Assembly: GCA_034717215.1 (NCBI GenBank)
Contig: JAYELD010000015.1
Span: 1-49,023 of the forward strand
DNA from: Caldisericota bacterium
GTDB lineage: Bacteria; Caldisericota; Caldisericia; Caldisericales; Caldisericaceae
DNA: 49,023 bases
Reading direction: 5' to 3'
Positions 41,164-42,270 of this stretch are shown here, piece by piece. The notes below the pieces were generated by a model that was not told the DNA's origin, did not search any database, and was given only the letters and a program-made list of their open reading frames with translations. Position numbers and translations under genes: made by a program. The number at the start of each line of letters is the position of its first letter. Within the stretch, counting starts at the first letter, position 1.

Positions 41164-42270
41164 ATGCTTTCTGTTATGATGAAACGTAGAATCAATTTAT
41201 TTTTGCAGCGTATAGAAAAAGGACTTGATTATTCCTGACTGAAAAAAAAGGAAGAGGAAGAAACTTCACTAAAGAACATACATTCCCTTCCTGGATTCTG
41301 GGCCAGAAATGATGCTAAAGAAAAGGCACAACTATATTCCATTGTGCAGAAAAAAATTAAAAAGTTCAAAGAGTTAGAACAATTGCAATGTGATATTAAA
41401 GCAATGGAAGAACTTACAAACGAGACAAATGAAATAATGGACGACGAAATGGAGCCTCTTGTTAAAAAAGGTGAAGAATTGCTTAAGGAATGGGAGGTCG
41501 AGCAGTTTCTTTCTAACCCATATGATAGTTTGAATGCATTTGTGTCTTTTTCCTCAGGAGCAGGCGGTACTGATGCGCAGGATTGGACTGAAATGTTAGT
41601 GCGAATGTATATTAGATGGTCAGAAAGAAAAAAATTCAAAGCAGAACTCCTGGAAGAAATGCCCGGAGATGAGGCAGGTTTAAAAAGCGCTCTCCTCCAC
41701 ATTAAAGGAGATTTTGCTTATGGGTTGTTAAGAGGTGAAGCCGGAGTACATCGCCTTGTTCGTATATCCCCGTTCGATTCTAACAAGAGAAGACACACAT
41801 CTTTTGCGCTTGTGGAAATTACTCCTGAGTTAGCAGATATTGAAGATATAGAAATAGATCGTAAAGATCTCAGAATCGATATTTATTGCGCAAGTGGACA
41901 TGGCGGACAAAACGTGCAAAAAGTGGCAACTGCGGTACGCATCATTCACATTCCAACGGGAATCACTGCAGAATGCCAGAATGAACGTTCTCAACTACAA
42001 AACAAGGCAATGGCAATGAAAGTGCTTAAATCTCGACTTCTAATGAAACAAGAAGAAGAAAGAAAAACAGAGTTAAAAAAAATAAAAGGAAAACATAAAT
42101 CCGCAGAATGGGGCAATGAAATACGCTCCTACGTGCTGCAACCGTATAGAATGGTCAAAGACCATCGAACTGATCAGGAAACAGGGCAAGTGGAAAAAGT
42201 ATTGGAAGGAGATTTAGATGCGTTTATATGGACATATCTTACACATTCAAAAGCATATAAAACCGACTAA
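41164..42270 (+). CDS. prfB: Peptide chain release factor 2, interrupted by an in-frame TGA at 41236-41238 (recoding or defect)
   Basis: Body carries the RF2 hallmarks SPF (RISPFDS) and GGQ (SGHGGQNV). ATG 41164 has a GGAAGGG SD. A 24-codon N-terminal segment is followed by TGA, and the RF2 sequence then continues in the same frame. The total of 369 codons is normal RF2 length. The ORF-track start at 41344 is a GTG that would truncate domain 1. Confidence 0.8.

Follow-up and report, generated by a model that had tools for sequence, protein, structure and literature searches.

An in-frame UGA at codon 25 of prfB in Caldisericota: a candidate for autoregulation of release factor 2 by read-through

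Release-factor genes controlled by their own product

The textbook example of autoregulation at the level of translation is frameshifting in prfB, the gene for release factor 2 (RF2); a simpler design, in which the regulatory UGA is read through, was expected but never found (PMC5009743). According to the RF2 passages of Atkins et al. (2016; PMC5009743), the read-through design had been considered before RF2 genes were sequenced, no sequenced RF2 gene combined an early in-frame UGA with a second ORF in the same frame, and frameshifting was not replaced by read-through in any known organism; the sole aside in these passages concerns a giant-virus release factor. A survey of 12,753 genomes (Prince et al. 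2025; PMC12421855) reports in its main text a near-universal frameshift mechanism, with CTTTGA accounting for almost all of the 8,164 motifs and TTTTTGA among the exceptions; the terms 'readthrough', 'read-through' and 'Caldiseri' do not occur in that main text. The first-pass annotation of the locus described below knew of no description of a same-frame variant, in line with the statement in the passages of PMC5009743 and with our search for later reports, which returned none from a literature collection that lacks most subscription papers.

Three other systems, summarized here from excerpts of the papers cited, share features with this locus. In the class-I release-factor gene of Mimivirus (R726) and Megavirus (mg280), a UGA-C inside the gene is conserved and undergoes read-through, autoregulation was proposed and selenocysteine was excluded (Jeudy et al. 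2012; PMC3521657). The factor differs in being viral and of the eRF1/aRF1 type, in being translated by eukaryotic ribosomes and in needing an extra frameshift, and it has no sequence kinship with RF2. In plants, the level of eRF1-1 is sensed via read-through in its own mRNA (PMC5397192), but here sensing takes place at the terminal stop and leads to decay of the mRNA (NMD), and the protein can be made without read-through. The UGA-CUA sites of alphaviruses (PMC13517186) have the same UGA-CUR context, with a sense codon in some relatives; they differ in the use of eukaryotic ribosomes, in a downstream stem-loop and in the absence of release-factor feedback.

The prfB locus and its distribution in Caldisericota

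The window, a stretch of 49,023 nt, comes from a metagenome-assembled genome (MAG) of Caldisericota (G000; 1.49 Mb, 95.87% complete). The coordinates of prfB and its parts are collected in Table 1. Two nucleotides separate the TAA of secA (41159-41161) from the ATG of prfB (41164-41166), which opens a run of 24 sense codons that ends at a TGA in the context TAT TCC TGA CTG AAA AAA AAG. The +1 frame is closed one codon past this TGA, and the -1 frame 25 codons from the stop position. The first alternative start in the frame is a GTG at codon 61 (41344) and the first ATG is codon 81. When the TGA is read as Trp, the protein matches the prfB profile TIGR00020 over residues 16-359 with 440.9 bits (cut-off 370). 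PrmC is also present. The sequence agrees with the first-pass annotation on the start behind GGAAGGG and the secA stop, on the TGA at codon 25 with a body in frame 0 through SPF and GGQ, on UCC in the place of the slippery CUU, and on the lack of an ATG between the TGA and the GTG at 41344. Its description of the other frames was correct for the immediate +1 stop and not for the length of the -1 frame, given as about 22 codons. The A8 run (A-AAA-AAG) to which it drew attention was a red herring: slippage there was rejected, as the run is kept in 4 of the 25 copies with an in-frame TGA (all from the genus of the window) and sits downstream of the blocking stop.

Table 1. Features of the prfB locus in the window (coordinates are positions in the window).
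Feature	Position	Strand	Remarks
secA	38678..41161	+	Directly 5' of prfB; ORF; NCBIfam TIGR00963/NF009538 above cut-off
SD-like GGAAGGG	41151..41157	+	From sequence; relatives have purine-rich leaders at the same start
prfB codons 1-24	41164..41235	+	First helix of RF2 domain 1; termination would yield a 24-aa peptide
AAA GGA (Lys-Gly)	41218..41223	+	SD-like purine stretch, 13-18 nt 5' of the UGA
P-site codon TCC (Ser)	41233..41235	+	Replaces slippery CTT
In-frame TGA, codon 25	41236..41238	+	Putative read-through site (Trp)
CTG	41239..41241	+	3' context, UGA-CUR
prfB body, frame 0, 343 codons	41239..42270	+	SPF 41767-41775; GGQ 41902-41910; TAA 42268-42270

The gene order in 38160-45777 is hpf-secA-prfB-YitT family-ftsE-ftsX-M23 peptidase. 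Scanning of 40900-41500 for an internal promoter or terminator gave hits at chance level or on the opposite strand. The tRNA-Ser(GGA) that reads the codon 5' of the stop is encoded nearby, at 37416-37506, which is probably a coincidence.

The phylum was covered with 93 genomes, 84 of which had a prfB match, giving 85 copies that were all extracted and read; the remaining nine had no match at 1e-80. An in-frame TGA with the body in frame 0 was present in 25 of the 85 copies, from six genera in two families, and the encoded proteins are 49-94% identical to the RF2 of the window. The family of the window (f1) has 14 copies of this type (5 genera) among 24, the other ten (5 genera) having TGG at the same place; in the second family (f2, which we take to be Cryosericum) the numbers are 11 and 10 out of 21. 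The stop is codon 25 in f1 and codon 26 in f2. In the 45 copies of the two families this column thus holds TGA 25 times, TGG 20 times and no third codon; every one of the 45 retains SPF and GGQ. Since the genomes are kin, the TGA counts represent two lineages rather than 25 events. The site TGA-CTR recurs in 24 genomes besides that of the window and, as TGA-CTG, in three metagenome contigs, so that the recurrence in relatives for which the first-pass annotation had proposed to look, TGA-C in frame with the body, was found in 25 copies.

The sister families f4, f5 and f6 have the classical CTT-TGA +1 site in 23 of 24 copies, followed by C in 22 and by A in one (CTT TGA A, in G074, locus L163); the one open copy (G031, L139) thus lies within an otherwise frameshifting family. 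The gene is open in seven copies of f3, with two more truncated, and in all seven of f7; truncation at the 5' end concerns G038 and G044, and G041 and G042 are among the open copies. In f3 (for instance L149 and L143) there is no ATG at the expected start, and starts at TTG or GTG seem likely. Outside the phylum set, 160 loci were examined, and these are the whole sample beyond Caldisericota: 15 had an in-frame TGA, 96 were classical, 40 open, eight cut and one unclassified. The 15 were all of Caldisericota type (12 repeat genomes of the phylum set), and none of the non-Caldisericota loci among the 160 had an in-frame TGA. As a control, TGA occurred inside prfA in 0 of 82 matches, three of which had one TAA. 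For a screen of other phyla, counting stops inside an HMM match is an unspecific measure, as a classical prfB also gave one TGA. A Caldisericum relative (L042) carries TGG, which may be why surveys of reference genomes missed the TGA type.

Compared with the classical cassette, the Caldisericota gene shares an RF2-specific UGA that is codon 25 or 26, aligns with the classical one and precedes a C, a short ORF1, a product that is needed for termination at UGA, and repeated loss in sub-lineages. It differs in that the body is in frame 0 and not +1, and in that CTT or TTT is replaced by TCC, TCT, TTC or GGC in 25 of 25 copies; the +1 frame stops after one codon in 18 of the 25 and is elsewhere not the frame of RF2. 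The classical internal SD, 3 nt before the slippery codon, has no counterpart at that spacing: the purine stretch of f1 lies 13-18 nt 5' of the stop, 6 nt further upstream than in f4 and f5. Because slippery codon, +1 body and SD spacing all fail, the in-frame gene is not a member of the classical cassette. Some marks of programmed read-through were found, namely a conserved in-frame stop, selection on both flanks and orthologues with a sense codon.

A lone in-frame stop in one MAG is usually an error or a pseudogene, and an apparent stop could also reflect reassignment of UGA throughout the genome or insertion of selenocysteine. The site is kept in 25 genomes, however, and prfB is single-copy: tblastn of G000 found one prfB and one prfA, and so not the second intact copy that the first-pass annotation had considered. 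A base or indel error, which it had also raised, is not borne out by other assemblies, since Logan contigs of runs X1 and X2 cover the whole stretch with 0 differences and that of run X3 covers 41101-41303 with 0 differences (the three runs are from one study, and X1 and X2 may be the source of the window DNA). UGA is an ordinary stop in G000: of 1085 long ORFs, 289 end in it, and the median distance from there to another stop is 6 codons. RF2 is consequently needed. A screen for same-frame joins, limited to ATG-started upstream parts of at least 15 codons and bodies of at least 100 codons, yielded five joins in the genome, with prfB as the sole housekeeping gene; the others were an ISL3 transposase joined to an IS110 remnant, one join without a Pfam match and two at TAA. 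The transposase TGA (L304:240-2291, G000:C36) occurs in frame with the IS110 remnant in one of 93 genomes, and is probably a nested insertion.

No tRNA-Sec was found over the Rfam cut-off and no tRNA with a TCA anticodon was found in G000 at default settings; a relaxed ARAGORN run gave one sub-threshold 'tRNA-SeC (tca)' candidate. SelA was found in 0 of 26 f1 genomes, and as one weak partial hit among 23 genomes of f2. The controls for tRNA-Sec and SelA were detected in E. coli. A code with reassigned UGA (tables 4/25) was rejected on the normal use of UGA, the presence of RF2 and a 5-bp anticodon stem in 50 of 50 tRNA-Trp, and selenocysteine recoding on the lack of tRNA-Sec over the cut-off and, in f1, of SelA. 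We regard artefact, pseudogene, reassignment and selenocysteine together as practically negligible. Within the phylum, SelA is practically restricted to f4, where 11 of 11 genomes have it.

Probable translation of the whole frame and possible decoding of the UGA

Selection on the codons flanking the stop was estimated as dN/dS (Nei-Gojobori) for pairs within genera, which are not independent. In f1 the values for codons 2-24 and 26-60 were 0.14 and 0.18 for the TGA type (16 pairs) and 0.18 and 0.15 for the TGG type (11 pairs); in f2 they were 0.23 and 0.23 (TGA type, 55 pairs) and 0.18 and 0.16 (TGG type, 45 pairs). No indels were found in these codons within any group. The codons on either side of the stop are under purifying selection. 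This bears on a shortened RF2, which would be made from an internal start (GTG61 or ATG81 in the window, ATG57 in f2) if the UGA terminated fully. RF3 contacts domain 1 of RF2, and RF3 (prfC) was found over the cut-off in 0 of 93 genomes, with one partial hit in a bin with 7% contamination; its absence makes a shortened domain 1 more thinkable. ATG81 is present in 14 of 14 f1 and ATG57 in 11 of 11 f2 copies of the TGA type, and the 308-aa product from the GTG passes the prfB cut-off and is the version that the protein collection contains, gene callers recording the window's RF2 as a truncated protein. However, the same Met codons are found in TGG-type genes (5 of 10 in f1, 10 of 10 in f2), differ between the families and are not consistently preceded by an SD. 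Under this reading, moreover, codons 2-24 and 26-60 would be non-coding or useless, yet they evolve as in TGG-type genes, and the exclusive alternation of TGA and TGG would be left unexplained. A truncated product was also the outcome against which the first-pass annotation had set its reading; with the codons between the stop and the internal starts evolving as protein, we consider it very unlikely. An AlphaFold model with Trp at position 25 (10-row alignment) has helices at 4-20 (pLDDT about 81) and 23-40, with pLDDT values of 81-87; the model is compatible with the RF2 fold and says nothing on read-through.

The sequence around the stop was then compared between the two types. The codon after the TGA is CTG in 21 and CTA in four of the 25 copies. 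In f1, CTR follows the stop in 14 of 14 TGA-type copies versus 1 of 10 after TGG, and CTR makes up 17% of the Leu codons in f1 genes as a background. In f2 CTG is a common codon; there CTR follows TGA in 11 of 11 and CTG follows TGG in 8 of 10. Of the 289 ORFs of G000 that terminate in TGA, 3 end in TGA-CTR. Immediately 5' of the stop, copies of the TGA type have TCC, TCT or TTC in f1 and GGC (11 of 11) in f2. The purine stretch AA(A/G) GGN occurs in 14 of 14 TGA-type versus 0 of 10 TGG-type copies in f1 and is not specific for the TGA type in f2; it is a possible modulator of the UGA confined to f1, with a putative role. The six codons 5' of the stop (KG[LI]DY[SF]) are far more uniform in the TGA type of f1 than in the TGG type; the nascent peptide or an SD-like effect may play a part in this, or it may simply come from closer kinship.

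The frequent CTG could serve as a start of its own, in which case RF2 would be made as two chains by re-initiation, and helix 1 ends just 5' of the stop in the structural model. The codon is CTA in four of the 25 copies, though, and no SD stands at the right distance from the CTG for initiation. Hopping past the stop undecoded calls for take-off and landing codons that match, and TCC, TCT, TTC and GGC do not match CTG or CTA. Neither process accounts for TGG in the relatives, and we attach very little weight to either. A double frameshift (+1 then -1) was rejected, as no second site is conserved and the +1 and -1 frames close at varying distances.

If the mRNA were edited from A to I, the UGA would be read as UGG and no stop would be met; this would likewise give Trp and fits the TGG alleles. 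The bacterial TadA editing motif is UACG, from which the context at the stop differs. A metatranscriptome contig of a relative (X18), which has 57 differences over 40910-41663, shows no change at 41236-41238 among the differences listed and no indel, with the reservation that contigs hide minor variants and that this one may be DNA. Editing is hardly credible on these grounds.

For decoding by a tRNA the candidate is tRNA-Trp. Read-through of UGA in E. coli mainly leads to insertion of Trp (PMC11126739). In f1 and f2 every copy without the stop has TGG there, for which reason the residue that would be inserted at codon 25 is most likely Trp, carried by the near-cognate tRNA-Trp(CCA). G000 has a single, conventional tRNA-Trp(CCA) gene, and a special tRNA-Trp was rejected: none of the tRNA-Trp examined has a 4-bp anticodon stem, and in f2 the tRNA is essentially identical between TGA- and TGG-type genomes. 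In f1, the tRNA-Trp (G000:C89:249-324, L174) has G9 and a distinct acceptor stem in 11 of 11 genes of the TGA type, with A9 in 10 of the TGG type and in f2. This G9 is a weak lead, as it marks one clade and is absent from f2, and it was dismissed as a marker since tRNA-Val and tRNA-Pro of G000 have G9 and this D-stem too. A weakened RF2 was rejected because the SPF and GGQ regions do not sort by type. Downstream RNA structure was rejected as a stimulator, with no signal specific for the TGA type (mean z of -0.9 versus -0.6 in f1 and -1.8 versus -1.2 in f2), and no trans-acting helper for read-through was found.

The reading that we prefer, with a probability of about 0.8, is that the single functional prfB yields RF2 only through read-through of the UGA at codon 25 and is thereby autoregulated. 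Full-length RF2 (368 aa) would arise only when the ribosome reads through this codon, where tRNA-Trp(CCA), aided by the weak UGA-CUR context, would compete with RF2. Since termination at UGA depends on RF2 alone, high RF2 would lead to release of the 24-aa peptide, and at low RF2 read-through would win and full-length RF2 would be made. The result would be the same negative feedback as in classical prfB, except that read-through takes over the role of the +1 frameshift. In B. subtilis prfB mutants, UGA suppression rose from 6% to 19-54% (as cited in the section of PMC7918605 consulted), which indicates that UGA read-through responds to RF2. We infer both the read-through at codon 25 and its response to RF2 from sequence comparison; the same interpretation in the first-pass annotation is supported to this extent.

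Counted against such a switch are the several losses to TGG, the lack of any stimulating factor in our searches and the equal use of TGA between types. Read-through could alternatively be a fixed attenuator or a tolerated relic that keeps RF2 low and constant with little response to RF2. TGG replaced the stop at least twice in f2, the stop is absent from 10 of 24 f1 copies, and the use of UGA as a stop is, in small samples, similar in the two types (24-50%): in 100-kb samples TGA ended 17 of 70 (TGA type) versus 17 of 64 (TGG type) in f1 and 34 of 73 versus 32 of 63 in f2. However, competition between RF2 and a tRNA at a UGA is an established mechanism that makes some feedback intrinsic. The stop is also TGA in 25 of 25 copies, never TAG or TAA, and it has persisted while the proteins diverged by about 50%, even though one A-to-G change would suffice to remove it. 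A constant attenuator thus seems unlikely, and autoregulation by read-through is kept as the working interpretation. Overall, the in-frame UGA is a real, lineage-wide feature and the best candidate that we found for bacterial RF2 autoregulation by read-through.

Relation to the frameshift site

The homology of the two designs was assessed from an alignment of 18 N-termini. The column of the stop or Trp is ungapped in f1 and f2 and falls, in f4-f6, on the Asp that follows the classical shift; the stop is at codon 25 or 26 in both designs, and within this alignment only f1 and f2 have Trp at that place. The classical mRNA is one nucleotide longer than the in-frame mRNA. The missing base was presumably lost 3' of the TGA, because the TGA stays in the frame of the start while the body joins it, and a loss at this place leaves TGA-C intact, as is observed.

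A tree was built from residues downstream of the trait column, with 55 of the 85 rows (G041 and G042 are omitted). In this tree f1 and f2 are sisters with moderate support (88/76), and they also share a QKV motif after GGQ. The TGA copies of f1 form one clade (100/99) beside the TGG copies (91/82), and in f2 the TGG copies nest inside the TGA copies twice (a 9-row clade, 100/98, and G055b, 99/91). If the ancestor had TGA, three later changes to TGG are required, and if it had TGG, four changes; the former is preferred because it also explains why the stop is at the ancestral place. We infer the order of events between the families, as f1 alone does not orient the change; two independent gains of TGA from TGG are an alternative that may still apply. 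The read-through design probably derives from the ancestral frameshift site: in the common ancestor of f1 and f2, one nucleotide would have been lost just 3' of CTT-TGA-C, moving the body into frame 0, keeping UGA-C in place and freeing the slippery CTT to drift. The TGG alleles would be later point mutations through which the read-through residue became fixed and the switch was lost. In one genome (G055; L121 and L128) two prfB copies were found, one of each type and close on the tree, which may be a mixed bin or a recent change.

Taken jointly, we think it fairly probable that this is the first natural case of bacterial RF2 autoregulation by read-through, derived from the classical site by loss of one base and kept in two families, that a single phylum has all states (+1 frameshift, read-through, fixation of Trp, open) at one homologous codon, and that UGA-CUR acts as a dedicated, high-efficiency signal in bacteria. 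Two modes of recoding would then be interchangeable by a single-base change at one site, and it becomes testable why the frameshift is almost always favoured in evolution, be it for dynamic range, basal leak or cost. The gene would also be a rare candidate for programmed read-through in an essential gene of a bacterial chromosome.

The f2 genes (for example L112 and L026) themselves end in TGA-C in 17 of the 19 copies with a visible end, so that RF2 also terminates its own gene at a weak UGA.
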